Below are positions 1 through 9,883 of a stretch of DNA of 9,883 nt, piece after piece (positions within the stretch are counted from its first letter, which is position 1; each line of letters begins with the position of its first letter). Both the position numbers and the translations under genes were made by a program. This DNA comes from a virus (Duplodnaviria > Heunggongvirae > Uroviricota > Caudoviricetes): positions 1 to 9,883 of the IMG/VR virus record IMGVR_UViG_2529292735_000024. One strand, given 5' to 3'. Below the pieces are notes generated by a model. It saw nothing but the letters and a program-made list of their open reading frames with translations. It made no database searches and had not been told where the DNA came from.

Positions 1-761
1 CTTTTCACGAATAACCGCCATCAGGCTGGCGTAATGCGCGTCATTGTGGATGTGCTGGCGCAGCCAGGCTTCATCATGGCGATGTTCGATAATGGTATTG
101 GCGATGTGGTGACTGGTACGCATACCGTTAGTGGCCATCACCGACAGTACGGCATCGGCCATCAGGGAAACGCCTACGTGTGGATCGCAAAACACCTGGC
201 TGATACCTGCCAGTTGCCCCTGAACCTTTGCCACATCCAGCGTGGTTCCGCCCAAATCCACAATCAGCAGGATTCAAACGGACTCATGTCAGCCAGTGCC
301 TTAAAGCCAGCCGGAATGGATTCAGGCATAACCCGCACGTTACGGATAGTGAATGCTTCGCCGTTCTGGTACTCCACCGGGCGCATAACGTTCGCTTTTT
401 TGCGGCTGATGTTGGCCATGTCCGGCTGTGCGTTTGTGTCGAAATACTCGCTCAGTGGCAGGGTGACAACCACATCCACCTCCTGTGGCGTGATGCCTGA
501 TTTGACCAGCGCGTGATGAATGGCAATGACATTCACATCGCTGTACTGGTATTGCGTGTCGGTCGTCTGGACAAAGCGATCGCTGACCGGATCAAAACCA
601 TAGCGCACGCCATCAAGCATGTAGTTCGCGGGCTGCGTGCCACCGAACGGCGCAGACCATTCCGACTTGAAGCTGTTCGGGCTGATGGCGTTGCGGCGTT
701 CGCCGTTCTCAGTCCATGCCAGCTTGATGTTGGTGGAGCCGTCGTCGATACAAATTTTCAT
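1..761 (-). pseudogene. ParM/StbA-family actin-like ATPase, apparently frameshifted, 3' end beyond window start
   Basis: ORF 264..761 (-) begins MKICIDDGSTNIKLAW and continues ...VMPESIPAGF, matching the N-terminal half of plasmid R1 ParM as I remember it. That frame stops at 264..266, but a different minus-strand frame over 1..263 translates as LLIVDLGGTTLDVAKVQGQLAGISQVFCDPHVGVSLMADAV...IIEHRHDEAWLRQHIHN with no stop, matching the next part of ParM (IIDLGGTTLDISQV...GVSL...IIIHRKD). The junction is consistent with a 1-nt loss in a short C/G run near 268..271. RBS AGGAA 7 nt upstream of the ATG at 761. Confidence 0.6.
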
Positions 762-792
762 GTCGCTTTTCCTTATGTTGATTAATTAATCG

Positions 793-828
793 TTTACGGG
801 ATTCTGAAATCCCGTTTTTGCCTGTTTT
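793..828 (+). repeat. Hairpin-containing repeat unit 1 (stem 796..803 / 808..815, then T5), terminator-like on + strand
   Basis: acgggatt-ctga-aatcccgt followed by ttttt, lying between the gene A stop (838) and the parM-like start (761). Imperfect direct repeat of 866..900. Confidence 0.5.
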
Positions 829-837
829 GTGCGCGCT

Positions 838-3678
838 TCATATATCGCTGCGCGTTTTTTGGTCATTTACGGGATTCGTGAGTCCCGTTTCTGTCTGTTT
901 TTTGTTTCCGCTGGTCAGGCCACCCCGCAGCAGGTCTGCTTTGCGGCGGGCGCGTTCAGTGGTTTCACTGATTCTCTGTGCGTGCTCTGCGTCGCGGATG
1001 GCGCGCAGCATGTCAGAAAGCACGGTAACGGGTGTTTTCATGGTGTTCTGGTCTTGCTGAAGTGTGGATGCCAGGCGTGCGGCGGCTTCAGGGTCTGATG
1101 CCCCCAGCTGTGCCAGATAGCTGGCGACTGGGTTATGGCGGATCTCCGTGCTGCTTACGCCATGATTACGGCTCAGGCGCTGCCAGAGCTGCGTGATTCG
1201 GCTGTCCGGGCGGGTATCCGGTTTGCGTACAATTTCAAATCCCTGCGGTGCAATGATGCTGCCGTCAACGTACAGACTGCCGCCCCGTAACAGGTGCTGC
1301 ATCTGTTGTTCACCGATATGCAGGCCGAGAGATTCAGCAGACTCCCGCCATTCTTTAGCGAGTAATTCGTGGTTATCAGGCAAAGGCCGCTGCTGTTTGC
1401 GGCTCTGTGTCCAGCTCTGCATTTCATCACTGCTGTTTTTTGCCTGTTTGTCACGCAGCGAACGCATCAGCGCCCGGCGTTCGTGCCGTTTCAGTGAGCG
1501 CATCCATTCGTTCACTTCAACGCCGTCAGGGAGCTGCGGCCACGGTGCTGGCCGTTCTTCCGGCTGTTCTGTCCCGTTGTTGTCCGTTTCCTGTACACGG
1601 GGACAGTTATTGCCACGAGTCCAAGGGGCGGCAGGGCCGCCCTGAAGGTCAAAACCATTTTCGCGGGCGCTGTCTTCCGCTTCCGGTTTGCGTCTTACCA
1701 GCTTCCAGTTATCCGGATGCGTGCACACACGGGAGGATTCCCCGATGAGTGGTGACCAGATCCCGTAAATCTGTACGCTCTGTTCGCCGTAATCGTTCAG
1801 CTCATCGGCGAGGTCGTAGGCGGTGCGAATCAGGTAGTCCTTGCGTGGAACAAGTACGCCGCCCTGTTTCTCTATGTAGGTGGCAAAACATCCGGCATCA
1901 GCGGCAGCGAGTACCGCATCCATTGCGTCATCCTTCAGCCGTTGCGGGCCTTCCGGGTTGCGTGCCATCTGGCTGGCAAGGCGGCGGAGTTCACGCCACA
2001 CCTGACGGGAGGGGATGCCAAAGAACTGGAACTGGCGGACCCGGTGAAGGCGCGCCCAGCCGATGGCGCGCTCCACGCTCTCGGCCATTGATTTTCCGGT
2101 TTCGTGGTCAACGCGTGGTTTGCCCGTTTTTGGGTCGATGCCATCCACGGCGCGGCTGTCCAGGTTCTTTCCGATGTAGGTGGCGATGTAGCTGGTTGGC
2201 GTGCCTTTTGAGCCGTCTACATACTCCGCCTTAAAGCGCGGAGTAATATCATCGCCCAGCTCGTGACGATCTTCCTGAATGGCAATATCGCGGGTGTGGG
2301 ACACAATGGTGTCGATTTCTTCCGGATGGGCAAAGACCATCATATGCCAGTGTACGGTGCCGTCATGGTGAGGCTCCACCGTGCGGATGCCATACCAGCG
2401 CAGGCCGTCGCGGTTCAGTTTTTTGCGGACCGCCGCAAAAAACGTGTTAACCAGATAATCGCTGGAGTCGCGCATGGTGGCCCCGTTCCATTTGGGGTTC
2501 GGATGACCGTTCTCCGTTGTTGCGTGGTATTTTGACGGGCAGGTGACAGTCAGAAACACCGCTTTGTCACCACGGGCTTCGGCCAGAAGTTCCAGCCCCT
2601 TCATGGTGGCCATCATTTCTGCCTTACGGTGAACCGGGTTACTTACTCCCGCGTAATACACTGTCTCGAGATCAATCGTGAACCCGTCTTCGTTTTCCAG
2701 CATGAAACTTTTCAGGAAATCGCGTGTTTTCTCGCGCTGTGCGCGAAACTCGCTTAACGCGTCCTGGCTCAGATAGGGTGATGTTTTTCTGGAAACCAGA
2801 CAGGCGGCGCGGAGTTGTTCTTCTCTCCACTCGCAACGTAACAGCCACAGTTTGCGTTTCCACCATTCCGCACAGGTCAGGCGAAGGATTGCGCCCGGCA
2901 GCAGCTCCGTGTCCGGTTCGTTCCTCCGGTCTTTGTCTGTTGTCAGTGCGTCATAATGTGGAGGCATGGCGTGCAGGTGTAACGCCATGCGGGCCAGCAT
3001 CTGATACGCCTTCAGCGTTACATCCATGGTCAGTTCGCCATCAGTCGCGCCAAAGCCATCGCAGAGTTTTTCGAAGGTGCTGCTGAACATCGCCGCCGTC
3101 ATGGTGGCCAGCGTCTGTATCTGGTGTTTGTTGAGCTGCGGCAGGTAAAGCAAATCGTCCAGGCGTTCGCGTCCGGCAAGGGAGCGATAACCCGGTGTCA
3201 GCCAGCGGCTGTCGGTGCGGTCCAGACGTTCGAATATTTTGCGCAGGGTTCCGCGTGCATAGCGTTCCGCCTGCCAGCTCTTTTTGCCTTTCTGACGATC
3301 GGCTTCCTGCTTCTTGCGCAGGAAAGAGAGGTGGCGGCTCAGAGGCTCTCGCAGATAAACGGGAAGCGCCTTCAGTGTGGCAAAGGCACGGGCTACCGGG
3401 TCTTGTTCTGTTGCCCGGCGCTTACTGATGATGCTCTGTGCCAGCTTTTCACGCTGTCCGGCTTCCTCAAGGGATGCCATGAGTTTTTTACCCACGGTGG
3501 ATTGTGCGAAAAAGGCTTCTTCCTTCGCTTCCTGTTCTTCCTGTGCCCTTTTGTCCGCCTCAAGGTAGTAACGGATGGCGCGTTGCAGGTCGGTTTCAGT
3601 TTCCTGCCTGCGCTCCGTAAATCTGGCCGGATCAATGGCTGGCCGTGGTTCATTCCAGCTCCATGCAAACTCACTCAT
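838..3678 (-). CDS. A: Replication initiation endonuclease, phage P2 gpA family (HUH rolling-circle initiator), about 946 aa
   Basis: Long minus-strand ORF with motifs LTVTCPSKYH, VEPHHDGTVHWHMMVF (HUH-type metal motif) and TSYIATYIGKNLD (paired catalytic Tyr), as I remember for P2 gpA. Start placed at ATG 3678 (MSEFAWSWNEPRP) because it overlaps the upstream gene's stop as ATGA; the track's start at 3705 is an in-frame alternative. Confidence 0.85.
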   Translation of the reverse strand: MSEFAWSWNEPRPAIDPARFTERRQETETDLQRAIRYYLEADKRAQEEQEAKEEAFFAQSTVGKKLMASLEEAGQREKLAQSIISKRRATEQDPVARAFATLKALPVYLREPLSRHLSFLRKKQEADRQKGKKSWQAERYARGTLRKIFERLDRTDSRWLTPGYRSLAGRERLDDLLYLPQLNKHQIQTLATMTAAMFSSTFEKLCDGFGATDGELTMDVTLKAYQMLARMALHLHAMPPHYDALTTDKDRRNEPDTELLPGAILRLTCAEWWKRKLWLLRCEWREEQLRAACLVSRKTSPYLSQDALSEFRAQREKTRDFLKSFMLENEDGFTIDLETVYYAGVSNPVHRKAEMMATMKGLELLAEARGDKAVFLTVTCPSKYHATTENGHPNPKWNGATMRDSSDYLVNTFFAAVRKKLNRDGLRWYGIRTVEPHHDGTVHWHMMVFAHPEEIDTIVSHTRDIAIQEDRHELGDDITPRFKAEYVDGSKGTPTSYIATYIGKNLDSRAVDGIDPKTGKPRVDHETGKSMAESVERAIGWARLHRVRQFQFFGIPSRQVWRELRRLASQMARNPEGPQRLKDDAMDAVLAAADAGCFATYIEKQGGVLVPRKDYLIRTAYDLADELNDYGEQSVQIYGIWSPLIGESSRVCTHPDNWKLVRRKPEAEDSARENGFDLQGGPAAPWTRGNNCPRVQETDNNGTEQPEERPAPWPQLPDGVEVNEWMRSLKRHERRALMRSLRDKQAKNSSDEMQSWTQSRKQQRPLPDNHELLAKEWRESAESLGLHIGEQQMQHLLRGGSLYVDGSIIAPQGFEIVRKPDTRPDSRITQLWQRLSRNHGVSSTEIRHNPVASYLAQLGASDPEAAARLASTLQQDQNTMKTPVTVLSDMLRAIRDAEHAQRISETTERARRKADLLRGGLTSGNKKQTETGLTNPVNDQKTRSDI
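866..900 (+). repeat. Hairpin-containing repeat unit 2 (stem 869..876 / 881..888, then T-rich tract), inside the 3' end of gene A
   Basis: tttacgggattcgtgagtcccgtttctgtctgtttt aligns to unit 1 at roughly 85% identity, about 73 bp away. Confidence 0.45.
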
Positions 3679-4064
3679 GGCTGGTATCCCATCACGCGCT
3701 GCCACTCCTGCGAGAAGAGGGTGGAAAGGCGGTTAAATTCAGCGGTGTATTCACTCAGCGAGGCACACCCGCCAGCAGTGCGATGCGCCAGCATTGCCGC
3801 GAATACGGAGGCCGGGGAGTCGTAATACGCCAGCAGTGATTCGCCGTGTGGTGTCAGGCAGTGCAACGCCAGCCCGTGTGGTGTGAAGTCCACGCGGTAG
3901 CAGTCGTCTACTGTGAAATAAAGGGTGTCCGCATTCTCCGGTTTTGTAGTGCGTGCTCTGTTGTCACGACCACGGATGTAAAGATCAAATAATCCCTGAA
4001 GAACGGGAGCCAGACGGGTGTCCTGTGTGCGCACCCATCTTGTGAAGTCATGAGCGTCAATCAT
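3675..4064 (-). CDS. Hypothetical early-operon protein (129 aa), translationally coupled to gene A
   Basis: ORF with protein-like composition; its stop overlaps the gene A start (ATGA at 3675..3678). Contains a duplicated TPHG motif encoded by an 11-bp direct repeat. No family recognised. Confidence 0.55.
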   Translation of the reverse strand: MIDAHDFTRWVRTQDTRLAPVLQGLFDLYIRGRDNRARTTKPENADTLYFTVDDCYRVDFTPHGLALHCLTPHGESLLAYYDSPASVFAAMLAHRTAGGCASLSEYTAEFNRLSTLFSQEWQRVMGYQP

Positions 4065-4136
4065 GCTGCAATTCTCTTTACTACAGATGTGCGAAGGCCT
4101 CCCGCCGCAAGGTGCAGGAAAGGCCCGGAACAGGAA

Positions 4137-4367
4137 TTAATGGAGTTTGTTTTGCTGCTGGATGAGCTGCTGAAGCTCGCGCAGATCATCCGCCAGATAG
4201 CTGAAAACAGCGGATGAGTAGAGGTTTGAAAGTTCGCAGCTACGCTCATGCAGCATATTGATGTGCATGATTTTAGCGACGCGGAATGCGCGGGAAAGTC
4301 TGCGGTTGATTTCAGTCTGGATGTGACGACGCTCCGCGATAGCGCGGTGCTGTTTGCGGTTTGCCAT
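4137..4367 (-). CDS. Hypothetical small basic protein (76 aa)
   Basis: MANRKQHRAIAERRHIQTEINRRLSRAF... is charged and helical in character. SD AGAGG sits 9 nt upstream of the ATG at 4367. Function unknown. Confidence 0.55.
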   Translation of the reverse strand: MANRKQHRAIAERRHIQTEINRRLSRAFRVAKIMHINMLHERSCELSNLYSSAVFSYLADDLRELQQLIQQQNKLH

Positions 4368-4375
4368 GATATGTG

Positions 4376-4700
4376 GCCTCTTGTAGTAAGTTGTGAAAAC
4401 TCACCATCCAGAGGTTCCAAGCTCGGGGTGGTGAGACGTACAGGGTTGGAACTACCGGCTACAAGAGATCCCGGCCCGACCGAAATCGGCCCCGTACGCC
4501 CCACCATAATTCGTGTGCGAAAAAGACGTGGCAATACAGTACGCACAAAAAAACCGCTGGCGCGGTTGTGCGCTCTTGTAGTCTGCGGGGTTCCAATCCC
4601 GGCACCCGTTTTATGAGGTGCAGCGGAAATGTAACCTGACTGATTGCGGCATGGCAAGCGGTTTTTTTGTGAGAACGGCATACTAAAAAATCCTGATGCT
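4376..4700 (-). other. Structured non-coding region between the SPFH cassette and the 76-aa gene (candidate leader or regulatory RNA)
   Basis: About 330 bp without a convincing ORF. The 9-mer ctcttgtag occurs at 4378..4386 and 4573..4581 and its complement ctacaagag at 4459..4467; ggttccaa at 4413..4420 and 4589..4596 with ttggaac at 4446..4452; A7 at 4547..4553, T7 at 4662..4668, A6 at 4685..4690. Confidence 0.4.
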
Positions 4701-4703
4701 GCT

Positions 4704-4728
4704 CCGGCCAGCGGTTTCCACTGGCCGG
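4704..4728 (-). terminator. GC-rich hairpin just downstream of the SPFH gene stop (possible terminator or RNA-stability element)
   Basis: ccggccag (4704..4711) pairs with ctggccgg (4721..4728), 9-nt loop with two more possible G-C pairs. On the sense (minus) strand a U6 tract follows only after about 14 nt, so it is not a canonical intrinsic terminator. Confidence 0.4.
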
Positions 4729-4734
4729 GTTTAA

Positions 4735-5565
4735 TTACTTCACCGGAACAAACGGAACAGCGGTATTACTGGTCATGTATTGCGGCAGCGTGCCGTTCCA
4801 TTTGTTGATAGCTTCCAGCTCCATAACGCCGGGGTTCTGGCGCAGAGCTTCACCGCGCAAACGAATGGCGTCGGCTTCAGCCTGGGCTTTTGTGCGAATG
4901 GCATCAGCCTGTCCGGCTGCTTCTGCGCGTAGCATGTTGGCTTCTGCTTCGCGCTGCTTGACTTCCTGTTCGCGTTGCAGAGTTTTCTGGTTTGCCGTGA
5001 CTTTGGCATTAATGCTGTCGATAACGGTTGGTGGGTATTCCGGTTTACCGACATAAGAGAGGCTCATTACCTGAATGCCGATAGGTGTCATTTCTGCCTG
5101 AATGTCTTTAAGTGCTGAATCCAGCAGTTCAGACTTGCCACCGTCGATAAACTTATCGGTGGTCATTTTGCTGGCCAGTCGGTTGAGTGCATCGGCGATC
5201 TTTTGGCGCAGGTCAGTGTCGGTAATGTCATCCACGCCTTTGCGGTAGGTCTGAAACACTGTGGTAACTTTGGATGGATCAACCTTGTAGGCCACACCGA
5301 TGTGATAGCCGATGGTTGTGCCGTCACTCATCTGAAAGCTGAATGGCTCATCGTAGGTCTTCATTTGTTTGAAGGTCGGGAAGATGTAAACCTCGGTATT
5401 CCAGCCTGTCCAGTAGCGGCCAACGCCAACCACTTCACCGACGCCTTTATCGTCGCCCAGTTTGTTGACTTTGATGCCCACATTACCTGGCTCAACGCGA
5501 TCGCAACCAACCAGCAGGATGGCGGCAAAAAGCGGGATAATCTGAAAGAGTTTGAATTTCTTCAT
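4735..5565 (-). CDS. SPFH/Band-7 (stomatin/prohibitin/HflC-like) domain lipoprotein, 276 aa
   Basis: N-terminus MKKFKLFQIIPLFAAILLVGC is a signal peptide with lipobox LVGC. The body has an SPFH-like core followed by an A/E/Q/R-rich coiled-coil tail (REQEVKQREAEANMLRAEAAGQADAIRTKAQAEADAIRLRGEAL). SD AGGAA 8 nt upstream; start overlaps the upstream stop as ATGA. Confidence 0.8.
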   Translation of the reverse strand: MKKFKLFQIIPLFAAILLVGCDRVEPGNVGIKVNKLGDDKGVGEVVGVGRYWTGWNTEVYIFPTFKQMKTYDEPFSFQMSDGTTIGYHIGVAYKVDPSKVTTVFQTYRKGVDDITDTDLRQKIADALNRLASKMTTDKFIDGGKSELLDSALKDIQAEMTPIGIQVMSLSYVGKPEYPPTVIDSINAKVTANQKTLQREQEVKQREAEANMLRAEAAGQADAIRTKAQAEADAIRLRGEALRQNPGVMELEAINKWNGTLPQYMTSNTAVPFVPVK

Positions 5566-5765
5566 TGTTTGATTTCCTTGATGTACTTACTGAAAAGGCG
5601 AACAACGCCTGCCGGGTACAGCATGGCAATGAAAATGCCCAGCAATACCAGGAAGGAGCTGTCTGATGAAATCATTCGGGGGAGTAGTCCTGCATACAGA
5701 ATGAGAGAAAAGAGGACGCATACCAGCGCCCACATGTATGCGCGAAACCAGGTCCTTTCGTTCAT
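5562..5765 (-). CDS. Small two-TM membrane protein (67 aa), partner of the SPFH lipoprotein
   Basis: Two hydrophobic segments (WALVCVLFSLILYAGLL and FLVLLGIFIAMLYPAGVV). ATGA overlap with the upstream gene at 5762..5765 and with the SPFH gene at 5562..5565. Confidence 0.65.
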   Translation of the reverse strand: MNERTWFRAYMWALVCVLFSLILYAGLLPRMISSDSSFLVLLGIFIAMLYPAGVVRLFSKYIKEIKQ

Positions 5766-5980
5766 GTCGGTTGCTCTCTTTTGTTATTCAGGAAAAAGTC
5801 AAAAACGTTATCGATGCGCATCATGAGTTCGCGCTGCATCGCTTCTGGTGTTTCTGGTTCGCCAGGTGATCCAAACCCAGCGAAGAAATCACCGATCTCG
5901 CTTTGAATGAGTTCCTTTAGTGTTGGCGGGGAGCTCAGGCGTGTGCGGCGATGTCTGCGTGTAATTCTCCTTCTGTTCAT
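5762..5980 (-). CDS. Small protein with arginine-rich N-terminus (72 aa), first gene of the SPFH cassette
   Basis: MNRRRITRRHRRTRLS... followed by an acidic/hydrophobic C-terminal part. SD AGGAG 8 nt upstream of the ATG at 5980 but embedded in a hairpin. Coding status less certain than its neighbours. Confidence 0.5.
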   Translation of the reverse strand: MNRRRITRRHRRTRLSSPPTLKELIQSEIGDFFAGFGSPGEPETPEAMQRELMMRIDNVFDFFLNNKREQPT

Positions 5981-6019
5981 CCGTGTGACTCCTGTAACTG
6001 TCGGACAGGGCTCACACGG
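5981..6019 (-). promoter_or_regulatory. Stable hairpin abutting the start codon of the cassette's first gene, occluding its SD
   Basis: Outer stem ccgtgtga (5981..5988) / tcacacgg (6012..6019), inner stem cctgt (5991..5995) / acagg (6005..6009), 9-nt loop. On the minus-sense RNA the SD aggag (complement of 5989..5993) lies within the paired region. Confidence 0.45.
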
Positions 6020-6095
6020 AATGGCAGTGATTTTTGGGTAGACATTCTTTGTACGGCAGTCGTCAGTTCACGTGGTTCCTGGTGGTTGATGGTGC

Positions 6096-6362
6096 TCATG
6101 CTCTGGCTTCCTTCAGTAGCTGGTTAAACATGTGGGTTAGTGGGTTGCCACACCCGAACGGCATCGGGTTTACGTGGTAAGAAGCCTGGCCTCCAGTTTT
6201 GCGAGCGCGACCACCTGTGCTGCGGTTTGTTCTGATGACTAAGCCGCCGCGCCAAAGTTGGCGTAACTCAGCATTAATGGCTGTGGTTGGAGTATTCAGT
6301 GCTGCGGCGATCTCTCCGCCGCTACACCCCGGATGAGTAGCGATGTAGTCCAGAATGGTCAT
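6096..6362 (-). CDS. Hypothetical protein, possible HTH/winged-helix DNA-binding protein (88 aa)
   Basis: MTILDYIATHPGCSGGEIAAALNTPTTAINAELRQLWRGGLV resembles an HTH recognition region. ATGA overlap with the upstream gene at 6359..6362. Confidence 0.55.
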   Translation of the reverse strand: MTILDYIATHPGCSGGEIAAALNTPTTAINAELRQLWRGGLVIRTNRSTGGRARKTGGQASYHVNPMPFGCGNPLTHMFNQLLKEARA

Positions 6363-6562
6363 CTGCGTGGCTCCTGTACCTGTCGGATAAGGTTTACCCG
6401 CGCCACATTAGTGGCGCAGAAGTAAGTGCCGTCAGTGAGGTAGATGTGGTGTGCATCCTTTTCCGAACGATGTTTGTCGATAGTGGTAATCAGGCGTTCG
6501 TCGACCTCGTATTCGCGCCCTCTGGAGGTAAAGCGAACGACGGGAAAATGCTTAATTGCCAT
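6359..6562 (-). CDS. Hypothetical early-operon protein (67 aa)
   Basis: ORF with a G-rich SD (aaggggg) upstream; translationally coupled to the downstream 88-aa gene. Confidence 0.5.
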   Translation of the reverse strand: MAIKHFPVVRFTSRGREYEVDERLITTIDKHRSEKDAHHIYLTDGTYFCATNVARVNLIRQVQEPRR

Positions 6563-6585
6563 TGCGCCCCCTTTGTCCAGTAACT

Positions 6586-6996
6586 CTATGCGTTAAATAC
6601 GGTGCACTGTGCGTCATCAATGAATGCGACTTGAGAGCGCTCTATCAGGCGGAGATTTGTCAGAATTTCTGATTCCCTTATGGGGTGAGGAGTGATCAGG
6701 TATTTATCCTGTAACCCGGCGATAATGGTGTATCGCTGTAGCTCCGAGCCAATTGTGTAAATAAGGCGTCCGGTGTTAGACAAATCCAGTCCGGTGACTG
6801 GTTGTGTTCTGAGAACCGCCAGTTCAGCATCCTGTTTTGCGATAATTTCGGCTGCTTCTGCCGTGACTCTTGCGACTATCAGTGTGTGGGTTGCGACGTC
6901 CATATGTGCATTTGCCACGGCTTTTTTCGCTACTTCGTTTTCTGTCTTTGAAATTTCTTTCAGTGCTCTGATGATACCTTCTTCTTTTGCGTGCAT
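6586..6996 (-). CDS. Hypothetical early-operon protein (136 aa)
   Basis: Strong SD GGAGA 8 nt upstream of the ATG at 6996; protein-like composition; no family recognised. Confidence 0.6.
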   Translation of the reverse strand: MHAKEEGIIRALKEISKTENEVAKKAVANAHMDVATHTLIVARVTAEAAEIIAKQDAELAVLRTQPVTGLDLSNTGRLIYTIGSELQRYTIIAGLQDKYLITPHPIRESEILTNLRLIERSQVAFIDDAQCTVFNA

Positions 6997-7089
6997 TTTT
7001 GTATCTCCGTTATTTGCGTGTGCGAATACCTCCGTTAATACGGAAGGTTTTCACGTTTTCTTATTTAATTTGATGCTTTATTTGTATCG

Positions 7090-7203
7090 TTATTCACCAG
7101 TGAAAAAGCGTTCAATCTTTTTTACTGAATGAATAATTCGCATAATCCCAATGGCGCAGGCCACCGAAATAATCAGAACAAGCCATGAGATAAATATACT
7201 CAT
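7090..7203 (-). CDS. Small hydrophobic membrane peptide (37 aa), absent from the ORF track
   Basis: Hand translation of the minus strand gives MSIFISWLVLIISVACAIGIMRIIHSVKKIERFFTGE then stop: one TM-like helix plus a basic tail. Its ATG (7201..7203) overlaps the stop of the 80-aa gene as ATGA (7200..7203). Confidence 0.4.
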   Translation of the reverse strand: MSIFISWLVLIISVACAIGIMRIIHSVKKIERFFTGE

Positions 7204-7442
7204 GCGATATTCCCCAGCTTATACGGTTCAATATGTTCCCCGCATTCTGCGGCACAGATCAGCTCGGAAAGTTCGTTAAGTGCATCCAGATCATCAGCGT
7301 AAAAAGCGACGTCATACAAACTCCGGATTGCCCTGGTCAATGAGTCACGGGCTGCACGTTCAGCATGAGCGCCTGATGCACTTAAGCGAAAATAAAATCG
7401 TTCAAGTGCTTTGTTAATGAGAGTTTTATATTCTTTGCCCAT
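7200..7442 (-). CDS. Hypothetical early-operon protein (80 aa)
   Basis: ORF with SD AAGGG 7 nt upstream of the ATG at 7442; no family recognised. Confidence 0.5.
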   Translation of the reverse strand: MGKEYKTLINKALERFYFRLSASGAHAERAARDSLTRAIRSLYDVAFYADDLDALNELSELICAAECGEHIEPYKLGNIA

Positions 7443-7453
7443 CGCAACGCCCT

Positions 7454-7732
7454 TTAATCTGCTTTCTGTATTTCAGCTTCTGAATCCATACAAATAATTT
7501 CGATATATGGTTCATCGCCATTAACCTGACGTGCCTTTTCAGCTTCGCTAATGATTTCTCGCACGGTCTGGTACGGAAGCTCCACAGTCAGGCGCGTACC
7601 GTTCAGATAAACGTAAGTAGCTGCGTTTTTTTCGGATGGAACAACTCCGTCAATGGCTGATGCGCGTAATAACAGTTCACCGCGAAAATCAATAAAACGG
7701 ATAAATACACCTTGTGCATGCTCTTTGGTCAT
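7454..7732 (-). CDS. Hypothetical early-operon protein (about 92 aa; start moved to internal ATG 7732)
   Basis: The track ORF 7454..7792 would overlap the upstream gene by about 50 bp. The internal ATG at 7732 (MTKEHAQGVFIRF...) follows the upstream stop by 10 nt and has AGGTG upstream. Confidence 0.5.
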   Translation of the reverse strand: MTKEHAQGVFIRFIDFRGELLLRASAIDGVVPSEKNAATYVYLNGTRLTVELPYQTVREIISEAEKARQVNGDEPYIEIICMDSEAEIQKAD

Positions 7733-7742
7733 AAAGCACCTG

Positions 7743-8084
7743 TTATAAATCAGCCTGTTTAATAAAACTTTGCCCACGAAGCAGACGATCAACCGTGCGA
7801 AGTGCTTCGTATAATGTGAAATCCTGCCCGAATTGATTGTCGCCGCAGCTCAATGCAAAAATGCGGTTTCCGGTAAACGGATTGCGTGGGCATTTATGGA
7901 CCACGATTCCAGCTTTCTCAATCAGCCAGGCATGCTCGCCGATTTGTTTTACTGGGTAGCCATCCGGCGTTGCGTGTGTATCACTCAGGCTGTAGCGGAT
8001 GTTGCTGCGTGATGCACTGGTAGCGAAACGGTTAGCGTGGCGTTCAGCACCATTACGAAAGCGTGAATTACGTTGCTGTTTCAT
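7743..8084 (-). CDS. Hypothetical early-operon protein (113 aa), first gene after the Cox-position regulator
   Basis: SD GGGAG 7 nt upstream of the ATG at 8084; 18-nt gap after the upstream stop; no family recognised. Confidence 0.55.
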   Translation of the reverse strand: MKQQRNSRFRNGAERHANRFATSASRSNIRYSLSDTHATPDGYPVKQIGEHAWLIEKAGIVVHKCPRNPFTGNRIFALSCGDNQFGQDFTLYEALRTVDRLLRGQSFIKQADL

Positions 8085-8102
8085 ATCAAAACTCCCTGCA
8101 TC

Positions 8103-8429
8103 TCATGCAGCAAAATTAAGAAAGCCTAATCCCAAATCTTCCGCCAGCTTCTTGGCTTTCTTAAGCCAGTGATTGCGCCAATCTTTACGCTCAGGAGGAA
8201 GCTGTTTCGTTGCGTCATAGACCATTTCGAGCCACTCATTCCAAAGGATGAGAAGACGGCGCGAACTCCCTTCCTCGCCTAAAACCTCGCGCTCAGTAGT
8301 TAGAGGGATGAGTCGACGCTCTACCAACTTTCTTACGGCTGATTCGGTCTTACCTGTGCGGCGGGAAAACTCATCGACGGTGATGGGGTCTGGGATCTTA
8401 AACAATGCCCTCAATAGTTCTTCATTCAT
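8103..8429 (-). CDS. Cox-position HTH DNA-binding regulator / putative excisionase (about 108 aa)
   Basis: Divergent from the repressor gene, as cox is in P2-like phages. HTH-like segment ITVDEFSRRTGKTESAVRKLVERRLIP. Start set at ATG 8429 (MNEELLRALF) with SD GGGAG 8 nt upstream; the track start at 8498 looks like an upstream extension. By my recollection it does not closely resemble P2 Cox in sequence. Confidence 0.6.
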   Translation of the reverse strand: MNEELLRALFKIPDPITVDEFSRRTGKTESAVRKLVERRLIPLTTEREVLGEEGSSRRLLILWNEWLEMVYDATKQLPPERKDWRNHWLKKAKKLAEDLGLGFLNFAA

Positions 8430-8524
8430 GTGATAATCTCCCTGTTTGGGGTATTTCTTGCGACGGATGCCCCAAATCAAACTCATTTGTATAAACATTA
8501 ATACAGACGTTGGAGAATTGCAAC
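8430..8524. promoter_or_regulatory. Lysis-lysogeny switch region between the divergent regulator and repressor genes (putative early and repressor promoters and operators)
   Basis: A 95-bp AT-rich interval. Minus-strand candidate promoter: TTGCAA (complement of about 8518..8523) then TATTAAT-like -10 about 15 bp downstream. Inverted repeats tttgggg (8443..8449) / ccccaaa (8470..8476) and gtat/atac around 8489..8504. Exact promoters and operators cannot be fixed from sequence alone. Confidence 0.45.
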
Positions 8525-8827
8525 ATGCGTATGACTATTGGAGAGCGCATAAAAATCATGCGTGAAAGCGAGAGACTTACTAGCCTCCCGGATACAGCAA
8601 AAATGCTTGGTTTAAACCGTGATGCTCTGTGGAGATATGAAAGCGGTAAAACTATCCCTAATGCTGAAGTAATTGAGCAAATACTAAACAACCCCAGATT
8701 TGAGAAATATGCGTTGTGGTTTATGACTGGGAAAATTGCGCCTGAATCCGGGCAGATAGCTCCGGCTCTCGCACACTATGGGCAAGAGCCAACGGACTTA
8801 CCCCCATCCGAAAGGAAAATTGGCTAA
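8525..8827 (+). CDS. C: Immunity repressor, P2 C-like (about 100 aa)
   Basis: MRMTIGERIKIMRESERLTSLPDTAKMLGL...ALWFMTGKIAPESGQIAPALAHYGQ closely resembles P2 C as I remember it. Start set at ATG 8525 with GGAG 9 nt upstream; the track's start at 8510 is a TTG. Confidence 0.85.
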   Translation: MRMTIGERIKIMRESERLTSLPDTAKMLGLNRDALWRYESGKTIPNAEVIEQILNNPRFEKYALWFMTGKIAPESGQIAPALAHYGQEPTDLPPSERKIG

Positions 8828-8893
8828 CCCTTTATTATTCTTACGTTTTACAAACTGGAAATGTCTTTCCTCGTTTCACCGGAGGGCTTGCCA

Positions 8894-9883
8894 ATGGCAA
8901 TTAAAGCGCTCGATGGTGGACGGTATAAAGTGGATGTTAGACCGCGTGGCCGAAGTGGACGTCGGATTCAGCGGATTTTTAAGAAAAAGGCAGATGCAGT
9001 GGCCTTTGAGCGTTATGTTCTCAGCCACATGCACGATAAGGAATGGCTTGAAAAGCCAACAGAGCAACGTCATCTCTCAGATCTGCTTCCGTTATGGTGG
9101 GAATTGGGTGGACGCAATAAGCCATATGCTAACGGCGTTCTAACCAGGTTGAAAAAAATCATCAAAGAAATGAATGATCCAAGGGTTAGCCAGATTAATG
9201 CTCGTTTCATGGCCGCTTATCGAAGCTCCCGTTTATCCTTGGGAGTAAAAGAGTCTACTGTTCGGCGTGATGAGTCGGATCTCGGAGGAATGTTTACACT
9301 CCTGGCAAATGCCGGGGAATTTCACGGAGAAAATCCGCTCCGCGCCCTCCCCTCTTTGAAACGAAAATCACCCGAAATGACGTATCTCACCACGGAAGAA
9401 ATCGCCAAATTACTGGATGCAGTAAGCGGTGATGCCCGGCGGATTACGCTACTTTGTCTCAGTACTGGGGCGAGATGGGGAGAAGCGAAAAATCTGCGCG
9501 CGGAACACATCATCAATAATCGCGTGACGTTTAACAAAACTAAAAACGGAAAAGTTCGAATTATTCCTGTCTCTGATGAAGTTGTTAGTGAGATCAAAAC
9601 AAAGAAATCCGGCCTTTTGTTTGACGTCAATTATGAGGAATATCGCAAGGTGCTTCGCAGTGTTAAGCCAGACCTACCAAAAGGACAGGCTGTACATGTT
9701 CTACGCCATACCTTTGCTGCTCACTTTATGATTAATGGAGGAAATATACTTACGCTCCAGCGAATTATGGGGCACGCTACGATCCAGCAAACTATGACCT
9801 ATGCGCACCTCGCTCCTGATTTCCTCCAGGATGCAATTTCACTTAATCCGTTAAAAGGAGGCATCCACATTTCATCCACATAA
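8894..9883 (+). CDS. int: Tyrosine integrase, P2 Int-like (329 aa)
   Basis: From MAIKALDGGRYKVDVRPRGRSGRRIQRIF the protein parallels P2 Int (MAIKKLDDGRYEVDIRP...) and carries the catalytic-region motifs LSTGARWGEA, HVLRHTFAAHFMINGG and LGHATIQQTMTYAHL. SD GGAGGG 7 nt upstream of ATG 8894; the track start at 8861 is an in-frame upstream ATG. The stop is the last codon of the window. Confidence 0.9.
   Translation: MAIKALDGGRYKVDVRPRGRSGRRIQRIFKKKADAVAFERYVLSHMHDKEWLEKPTEQRHLSDLLPLWWELGGRNKPYANGVLTRLKKIIKEMNDPRVSQINARFMAAYRSSRLSLGVKESTVRRDESDLGGMFTLLANAGEFHGENPLRALPSLKRKSPEMTYLTTEEIAKLLDAVSGDARRITLLCLSTGARWGEAKNLRAEHIINNRVTFNKTKNGKVRIIPVSDEVVSEIKTKKSGLLFDVNYEEYRKVLRSVKPDLPKGQAVHVLRHTFAAHFMINGGNILTLQRIMGHATIQQTMTYAHLAPDFLQDAISLNPLKGGIHISST

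Follow-up and report, generated by a model that had tools for sequence, protein, structure and literature searches.

What is the role of the repeated sequence that lies in front of a small early gene of a P2-like prophage of Escherichia coli? The locus belongs to an IMG/VR virus record (IMGVR_UViG_2529292735_000024), of which positions 1 to 9,883 were analyzed and are referred to here as the window, and the repeats fall within positions 4376-4700, next to the Shine-Dalgarno (SD) sequence of a gene for a protein of 76 amino acids (aa). A preliminary description had regarded the region as structured non-coding DNA and had proposed either an attenuator or translational switch or the terminal inverted repeats of a mobile-element remnant. 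The region is indeed structured, although it is not simply non-coding, as two RNA genes are located on its minus strand. Together with their target sites, these genes very probably constitute an antisense-RNA immunity module of the IsrK–C4 type, which is known from immI of phages P1 and P7, from the seqA–CI–seqC region of P4, and from N15, here carried by a P88-like E. coli prophage. All elements of the module share the orientation of the 76-aa gene, whose sense strand is the minus strand, and the module most likely keeps this small anti-repressor gene silent. The proposed switch layout was therefore broadly right, albeit for an RNA "immunity" system and not for a classical attenuator.

The 9-mer CTCTTGTAG occurs on the plus strand at 4378-4386 and 4573-4581 and as its reverse complement at 4459-4467, with no further copy in the 9,883-bp window. 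Three copies compare with 0.03 expected, and none of 200 dinucleotide shuffles of the window contained three or more, which bears out the earlier impression that two direct copies and one inverted copy exceed chance. Each 9-mer is also accompanied, as had been noticed, by the 7-mer TTGGAAC or its complement GTTCCAA, found at 4414-4420 and 4590-4596 on the minus strand and at 4446-4452 on the plus strand; these are its only three copies in the window. The count of the 7-mer is not significant window-wide by itself (48 of 200 shuffles reached at least three copies), and the motif is meaningful because of its location beside the 9-mers and its covariation (see below). The same direct and inverted pairs were returned by a repeat finder (D3, D4, I7, I8, and I9).

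The upstream copy of the 9-mer is part of an IsrK-type small RNA (4547..4621, minus strand), which corresponds to the a1/b1 region of P1 and to seqA of P4 and was matched over its full length by the Rfam model RF01394 (71.3 bits compared to a gathering score of 50). The RNA folds into two 5' hairpins, a single-stranded stretch, and a terminator hairpin with a U7 tail. The loop of hairpin 2 presents the a1 target UUGGAAC (4590..4596), while the b1 target CUACAAGAG (4573..4581) is single-stranded between hairpin 2 and the terminator. The string ggggttccaatcccgg at 4587-4602, previously likened to a tRNA T-loop, does exist, but it is this hairpin showing a1, and ARAGORN detected neither a tRNA nor a tmRNA in the window. 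A member of this family is expected to be an Hfq-binding small RNA of ~75 nt with a promoter and a Rho-independent terminator of its own. A consensus scan and the fold place a terminator-like site at 4567..4552, followed by a T run (to 4547), and the scan places a promoter-like site at 4628..4657 (-35 hexamer TTGCCA at 4657..4652, an 18-nt spacer, and -10 hexamer TACATT at 4633..4628). The latter is 6 nt upstream of position 1 of the isrK Rfam match, with a predicted transcription start near 4621, and a TTGAC-type -35 with a TAnAnT -10 is found at the same position in 14 of 14 related phage loci. The A7, T7, and A6 runs mentioned in the preliminary description are all real and could each be assigned a likely role: read on the minus strand, the A7 at 4547-4553 forms the U7 tail of the IsrK terminator, the T7 at 4662-4668 is a minus-strand A-tract (A7) just upstream of the -35 hexamer, and the A6 run is located at 4685-4690.

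The middle copy of the 9-mer is part of a second RNA gene, which follows isrK on the same strand after a gap of 35 nt. This C4-type antisense RNA (4424..4511, minus strand), equivalent to the CI RNA of P4, was matched over model positions 1-87 of 87 by the Rfam model RF01695 (79.2 bits compared to a gathering score of 45). The preliminary description had recognized neither of the two RNA families. The C4 fold consists of a 17-bp outer stem around two hairpins and an 8-nt junction, with a minimum free energy (MFE) of -43.8 kcal/mol and z = -4.1 (-4.08), and both the MFE and centroid folds agree with the consensus structure of the family. According to the Rfam match, the fold, and covariation, the recognition element b' (CUCUUGUAG, 4459..4467), which is the middle 9-mer, occupies the 12-nt loop of the second hairpin, and the recognition element a' (GUUCCAA, 4446..4452) is unpaired in the single-stranded junction. 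The corresponding targets are repeated in the leader of the 76-aa gene, where a2 (UUGGAAC, 4414..4420) begins 4 nt past the 3' end of C4 and b2 (CUACAAGAG, 4386..4378) follows 27 nt after a2. The a'/b' elements are complementary to each of the two target sets over 9 + 7 bp. As previously described, the last copy of the 9-mer, which is b2, overlaps the SD sequence (AAGAGG, 4382..4377) of the 76-aa gene, with the AUG at 4367 located 9 nt further on; an overlap of the downstream target with the ribosome-binding site of the first regulated gene is expected of a P1 immI-type system.

Several other signals on the minus strand lie close to these RNA genes. In a second promoter-like match at 4506-4534 (TTGCCA, 17 nt, AATTAT), the -10 hexamer coincides with the AAUUAU that is conserved where C4 begins; this match was not adopted as a C4 promoter because transcription would start inside the C4 stem. 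As this is the sole promoter-like match between IsrK and C4, synthesis of C4 from read-through transcripts is favored, as in the prophage Gifsy-1 of Salmonella; P1 has been reported to have two c4 promoters (PMC8198154). The longest inverted repeat of the region (4534-4561 / 4654-4681, 28 nt, 82% complementary) connects a segment just upstream of the IsrK start with the 3' half of the IsrK terminator and its U tract. Since the segment 4654-4681 is present only in transcripts that arrive from upstream, i.e., from the early operon, it could act as a promoter-dependent antiterminator. Further upstream, an 11-bp hairpin that looks perfect (CCGGCCAGUGG...CCGCUGGCCGG, 4704-4728) is located just past the stop codon of a gene for an SPFH/Band-7 protein, with a U6 run 12 nt away, and may be a weak terminator or an RNA-stability element that separates the early genes from the RNA module.

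The arrangement is shared by a wide range of phages. In all 14 phage loci that were fetched for their DNA similarity, including P88-like, Stx and other lambdoid phages, phiP27, the N15-like phiKO2, a Yersinia phage, and the P1-like RCS47, isrK is located 24-44 nt upstream of C4 on the same strand and both precede an anti-repressor-type gene. In P4 itself, the C4 model matches CI (74.9 bits) and the isrK model matches the seqA region (60.8 bits). Amongst closer relatives, the module is present in all 83 P88-like loci encoding the 76-aa protein, which comprise 80 IMG/VR loci (88-100% protein identity) together with the window, P88, and Shae_phiSM. Variation in the otherwise near-identical leaders of these loci falls on the a and b elements. 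Alignment-based column extraction reduced the 83 sequences to 21 distinct combinations with 15 distinct (a', b') types, in which at least five a alleles and at least 12 b alleles are reassorted (P88-like loci L016-L095, L001, and L003) within almost invariant flanking RNA. For example, P88 has the elements CAACUACAG / UUUCCAC compared to CUCUUGUAG / GUUCCAA in the window, the b allele of the window recurs in the IMG/VR locus L019 with a different a allele, and Shae_phiSM combines the a allele of the window with a different b. This diversity looks like the result of diversifying selection on immunity specificity together with recombination between the two elements.

The variable elements change in concert. 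Covariation was computed over the 21 distinct leaders with 16 pairs per target set. For C4 with a1/b1, 100% of 336 cells were paired and 11 of the 16 pairs had double changes (score 0.712, compared to 0.135 for shuffled alignments, with 0 of 500 as high), to which the a1:a' helix contributed 4 of its 7 pairs and the b1:b' helix 7 of its 9 pairs, both helices being 100% paired. For C4 with a2/b2, 98.2% of the cells were paired and double changes were found in 10 of the 16 pairs (score 0.668, compared to 0.130 for shuffled alignments, again with 0 of 500 as high); here, the a2:a' helix was 100% paired with double changes in 4 of 7 pairs, and the b2:b' helix was 96.8% paired with double changes in 6 of 9 pairs. 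Moving the partners by 1-3 columns lowered the pairing to 26-50%. Cognate sets of C4 and targets formed 15-16 of the 16 pairs, compared to a mean of 10.6 for non-cognate sets. RNAalifold, given the alignment alone, also found the a1:a' and b1:b' helices. The proposal that the middle element can pair with either flanking copy is thus borne out by covariation for both pairings and, for the upstream copy, by the predicted consensus structure as well. The comparison of homologous regions for compensatory changes, which the preliminary description had recommended, thus gave a strongly positive result.

The gene under the putative control of this module (4137..4367, minus strand) encodes a "derepression protein" matching Pfam PF25738 (E = 6e-7) and, over its full length, phrog_3688. 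Its product shares 29% identity over 66 aa with the epsilon protein of P4 (BLASTP, pairwise E = 1e-8), and has no similarity to the P1-type Icd of RCS47. Judging from these matches, the 76-aa protein is homologous to the anti-repressor epsilon (E) of P4, which binds the C repressor of P2 (PMC2995052). It is followed by an open reading frame (ORF) of 129 aa (4064..3675, minus strand) and the replication gene A (gpA; 3678..838 as annotated by RefSeq for an identical prophage, minus strand; Pfam Phage_GPA, E = 2e-131), each of which has a start codon overlapping the preceding stop codon. By analogy with the known systems, the 129-aa ORF and gene A are likely subject to polarity. The 129-aa ORF has no homology to orf151 of P4.

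A working model can be drawn by analogy with P1, P4, and Gifsy-1. The constitutive-looking promoter (~4657..4628) would start transcription near 4621, and most transcripts would probably end at the IsrK terminator (4567..4547), resulting in a ~75-nt RNA with a1 (UUGGAAC) and b1 (CUACAAGAG). Read-through transcripts would include the C4 RNA (4511..4424), which is probably excised from the precursor, a task of RNase P in the P1-type system, and would expose b' (CUCUUGUAG) in its hairpin loop and a' (GUUCCAA) in its single-stranded junction. In trans or in cis, C4 would bind the leader of the 76-aa gene at a2 (4420..4414) and b2 (4386..4378). Since b2 covers the SD, this pairing is expected to block translation of the P4-epsilon-like anti-repressor, and polarity would probably lower the expression of the 129-aa ORF and gene A too. 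The a1/b1 elements of IsrK may compete for the recognition elements of C4, either as a decoy that tunes the amount of free C4 or as a cis partner in an inactive leader fold. If produced, the 76-aa anti-repressor may bind the prophage's own C-type repressor, a helix-turn-helix (HTH) protein encoded at 8510-8827. The a/b sequences would define specificity, so that modules of different a/b types should not cross-repress, similar to P1 and P7, in which c4 RNA blocks ant translation at the ribosome-binding site and determines heteroimmunity (PMC12197685; PMC8198154).

The closest precedent for the order of elements is immI of P1 and P7, where a1 and b1 are likewise followed by C4 (b', a') and then by a2 and b2, which lie at the ribosome-binding site of the gene that comes next. 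The C4 recognition elements are likewise in a loop and a junction, the product is likewise an anti-repressor, the a/b elements define immunity types, and the P1-like RCS47 matches the identical two Rfam families. On the other hand, the first gene in the window is not icd and no Ant1/2-type protein comes next, the operon consisting instead of the P4-epsilon homologue, the 129-aa ORF, and a P2-type gene A. Moreover, P1 and P7 are plasmid prophages whereas the window represents an integrated P2-like prophage, and the a1/b1 elements of the window are contained in a terminated IsrK-type small RNA. A further related system is the anti-immunity locus of N15 and phiKO2 (a small processed RNA, icd, antA, and antB), where phiKO2 has isrK, c4-a1b1, and C4 directly before icd-antA-antB, but the cargo genes and the type of phage differ, N15 and phiKO2 being linear plasmid prophages. 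The module of the window works like immI, yet it is not an icd-ant operon and shares more with P4. The P4 immunity region (PLE, seqA, CI RNA, seqC, eta/kil, epsilon, and alpha) also has both RNA families and a downstream epsilon gene, a long open frame that runs from upstream of an internal promoter across the RNA genes (eta), and replication functions further downstream. The two differ in that the long frame and the epsilon-like gene of the window overlap in different reading frames, gpA (of the rolling-circle nickase family) takes the place of the primase-helicase alpha as replication gene, and the 129-aa ORF is unrelated to orf151. In addition, the window belongs to a complete P2-like phage, i.e., of the helper kind, whereas P4 is a satellite. 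IsrK and C4 have previously been equated with seqA and CI, respectively, and described as an "IsrK-C4 immunity system" in P4, P1, P7, N15, and lambdoid prophages (PMC3632133).

A number of observations weigh against the assignment of an IsrK–C4 immunity module or limit how far the mode of action can be specified. The covariation counts include inherited changes, and the 83 P88-like sequences are closely related, although the reassortment of a and b alleles in many combinations points to numerous changes of independent origin. The related c4-a1b1 model (RF03163) scored 20 bits at 4634..4582, below its gathering score of 46.7; the element scored by this model is also covered by the isrK model, which passes. 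Elsewhere, phiKO2 passes both RF03163 and isrK, and P4 passes isrK and is just short on RF03163 (44.1 bits). The promoter and terminator of the module are consensus matches only, and a scan of the window found no intrinsic terminator on the minus strand downstream of C4, so that any effect on gene A would need Rho-dependent polarity. Furthermore, the published outputs of this class of module differ, including a translational block in P1, premature termination caused by the same RNAs in P4 (PMC3632133; PMC10111431), and activation by IsrK through refolding of the leader in Gifsy-1, and the sequence alone does not decide which output dominates here. We rank translational block with polarity first because b2 overlaps the SD and no intrinsic terminator follows, an IsrK-dependent switch second as a compatible modulator, and P4-type termination third as a compatible alternative.

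In the Gifsy-1 locus isrK–orf45(STnc1160)–anrP, IsrK controls the anti-repressor, and the RNA that follows IsrK requires the isrK promoter (PMC4825925); an activation switch of this kind is a possible but doubtful primary mode for the window. The read-through leader would be silent because a1/b1 pairs with a'/b' in cis, and C4 would not primarily be a free repressor; such a switch overlaps with C4 repression and does not exclude it. The RNAalifold consensus of the 21 leaders is in fact this cis fold, in which IsrK columns 23-52 pair with C4 columns 161-187, and in a second hairpin the 3' strand of C4 pairs with a conserved GGUGAG and shows a2 in the loop. The extended IsrK-C4 cis helix with the a2-loop hairpin corresponds to "structure A" of Gifsy-1, which is translationally silent, with the short IsrK acting in trans as the activator (PMC4825925). 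Genetic work on Gifsy-1 (PMC4825925) supports a switch between structures A and B in which IsrK is the activator and an ORF starting at the AUG in AAUUAUGG provides coupling, and this AUG is conserved in the window at 4507..4505. As is predicted for the window, the IsrK of Gifsy-1 has a separate promoter and a terminator that allows some read-through, by which a structured downstream RNA is made, and the output is an anti-repressor. By contrast, the single-sequence MFE fold of the window leader keeps IsrK and C4 apart, which together with the consensus fold makes both conformations plausible. The a2/b2 pairing covaries as strongly as the a1/b1 pairing and b2 lies on the SD, neither of which an upstream cis lock needs; as the SD itself is the b2 target, coupling by an upstream ORF is not obviously required. 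C4/CI is a processed trans-acting repressor in P1, P7, P4, and N15, and, unlike Gifsy-1, the window has an epsilon-like rather than an AnrP/Rha-like anti-repressor and no AntQ-type antiterminator. Pairing of C4 with a1/b1 and a2/b2 of the nascent transcript could instead mainly cause premature termination, as in P4, and thereby stop transcription of the 76-aa gene, the 129-aa ORF, and gene A without a need to mask the ribosome-binding site. The resemblance to the P4 immunity region outlined above and the intrinsic terminator between b1 and C4 are consistent with this idea. It is nevertheless unlikely, given that the scan found no terminator-like site on the minus strand downstream of a2/b2 that could serve as a P4-type immunity-specific termination site, and that the alpha operon is replaced by gpA. 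In addition, the epsilon-like gene starts 56 nt after C4, whereas epsilon of P4 is located ~245 nt after CI, at the end of eta, and the position of b2 directly on the SD, as in P1, fits a translational block with secondary polarity.

Two explanations unrelated to antisense RNA were also considered. A 206-codon open frame (4061..4681, minus strand) of uncertain status, with "Ash"/eta-like similarity, has its start upstream of the IsrK promoter and extends through both RNA genes and, in a different reading frame, through the whole 76-aa gene. Its stop codon shares an ATGA with the start of the 129-aa ORF, and the latter likewise overlaps the gpA start. If this frame were a protein gene, the conservation would be due to coding and the repeats would be incidental. 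Its first 100-120 residues match Pfam Phage_ASH (PF10554, E = 2.6e-7) and several PHROG "transcriptional regulator" families, RefSeq places a pseudogene of an "ash family protein" here, 80 of 83 relatives have kept the frame open, and eta of P4 is a real translated gene in an equivalent position. However, the Pfam match (residues 17-100) covers exactly the two RNA genes and the leader (4633..4382), and the distance from the isrK 5' end to C4 ranges from 98 to 123 nt between phages with differences that are not multiples of three, so that no reading frame is conserved across the family. The frame is broken in three P88-like loci, and 6 of the 15 phages compared lack a frame that starts upstream of isrK and stays open across the module. 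Variation occurs in triplets of complementary RNA elements and not codon by codon. Within the overlap with the 76-aa gene, substitutions are 61 synonymous and 249 non-synonymous for the 206-codon frame, compared to 145 and 171 for the 76-aa frame, which indicates no purifying selection on the former. The probability of finding no stop codon was 0.08 across the gene (synonymous resampling) and 0.42 across the spacer. The frame was accordingly rejected as a conventional protein gene, since it has no protein-level constraint and its openness is only mildly unlikely by chance, and protein coding, a very improbable reading, does not explain the repeats. Still less credible, to the point of being negligible, is an origin as terminal inverted repeats of a mobile element or as a tRNA-derived attachment-site (att) fragment, which was suggested by the inverted 9-mer pair and by the T-loop-like string GGTTCCAATCC. 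The repeats measure only 9 nt, are contained in RNA genes whose scores far exceed the thresholds, and covary in the manner of RNA-RNA partners; they are hypervariable yet always complementary in threes, unlike transposon ends or att cores. Unrelated phage backbones also have the same layout in a constant place before their anti-repressor genes, while the integrase and the likely att region of this prophage are ~5 kb away at the end of the window, and no tRNA accompanies the repeats.

Translation through the module may nevertheless play a role. In P4, where the corresponding frame is the genuine gene eta, termination is prevented when eta is translated from transcripts that start upstream (PMC10111431). 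The start of the frame precedes the isrK 5' end by 60 nt in the window (206 codons) and by 120 nt in P4 (217 codons), and the 206-codon frame may be kept open only to let ribosomes pass. The PHROG "transcriptional regulator" families phrog_995, 821, and 6928 match the RNA-module stretch with their N-terminal ~100 residues, and the PF10554 match likewise covers the RNA-module stretch in a second phage locus (L002, 5543-5782). Conservation of the Ash and PHROG regulator families thus seems to stem, at least partly, from RNA genes. NCBIfam has no model that matches the 76-, 129-, or 206-aa products.

The window as a whole represents a P2-like prophage, of which the closest named phage is P88 (Xuanwuvirus, Peduoviridae; 92.8% identity). 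On the minus strand, the gene order is Cox, several early genes, the SPFH/Band-7 gene, the RNA module, the 76-aa gene, the 129-aa ORF, gene A, and a ParM-like gene, and the plus strand carries the C-type HTH repressor (8510-8827) and the integrase at the right end. The SPFH/Band-7 protein gene (4735-5565, minus strand) lies in the early operon directly upstream of the RNA module, and a ParM/StbA-type actin-like segregation gene (264-761, minus strand) lies downstream of gpA, next to a gene annotated in RefSeq as "plasmid partitioning/stability"; both the segregation gene and the SPFH/Band-7 gene are unusual cargo for a P2-like phage. The stretch 4100-4760 is 100% identical in six complete E. 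coli genomes, including O139:H1 strain W13-16, and some match to this region is found in 1,361 of 5,426 complete E. coli genomes.

No non-coding RNA is annotated at the module in RefSeq, and the RNAs are annotated in none of the GenBank records of Stx2a_1447, mEp460, phiP27, and P88. Coding sequences for an anti-repressor or "transcriptional regulator" have been drawn over isrK and C4 in Stx2a_1447, mEp460, and phiP27 (L004 148-1299, L005 148-1299, and L007 314-973), and in the P88 record (L001 5329-5517) a hypothetical coding sequence on the opposite strand covers the RNA genes. A limited literature search found no description of the module in P2-like phages. The module represents an established class of phage RNA regulators, here in a group of phages whose annotation lacks it, and is not a new mechanism.

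The recognition of the module adds two regulatory RNA genes that are missing from RefSeq in a very common E. coli prophage family. It explains the "structured non-coding" region and predicts that the RNAs gate prophage induction and superinfection immunity. It also links immI of P1, CI of P4, and IsrK of Gifsy-1 in one P2-like phage and places a homologue of the P4 anti-repressor under RNA control, while the 15 specificity variants in near-identical backbones provide a natural panel for the study of RNA-RNA orthogonality between two short kissing elements. The P2 family is the kind of phage that is parasitized by P4. Tentatively, and with less than even confidence, we propose that P88-like phages of the P2 family own a P4-style cassette (IsrK/seqA, C4/CI, an eta-like frame, and an epsilon-type anti-repressor) before gene A, which would have three consequences. 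The cassettes of P4 and of the window would be of recent common origin, the satellite having captured it from a helper-type phage or the reverse. The a/b elements would be a combinatorial, hypervariable RNA "immunity barcode" that is kept diverse by conflict between co-resident or superinfecting phages, and possibly satellites. Finally, the long frame would be open only for ribosomes on early-operon transcripts, coupling translation into the 129-aa ORF and gene A, such that ribosome run-through would bypass C4 in lytic growth and the 28-nt segment would be an antiterminator that depends on the promoter from which the transcript originates.

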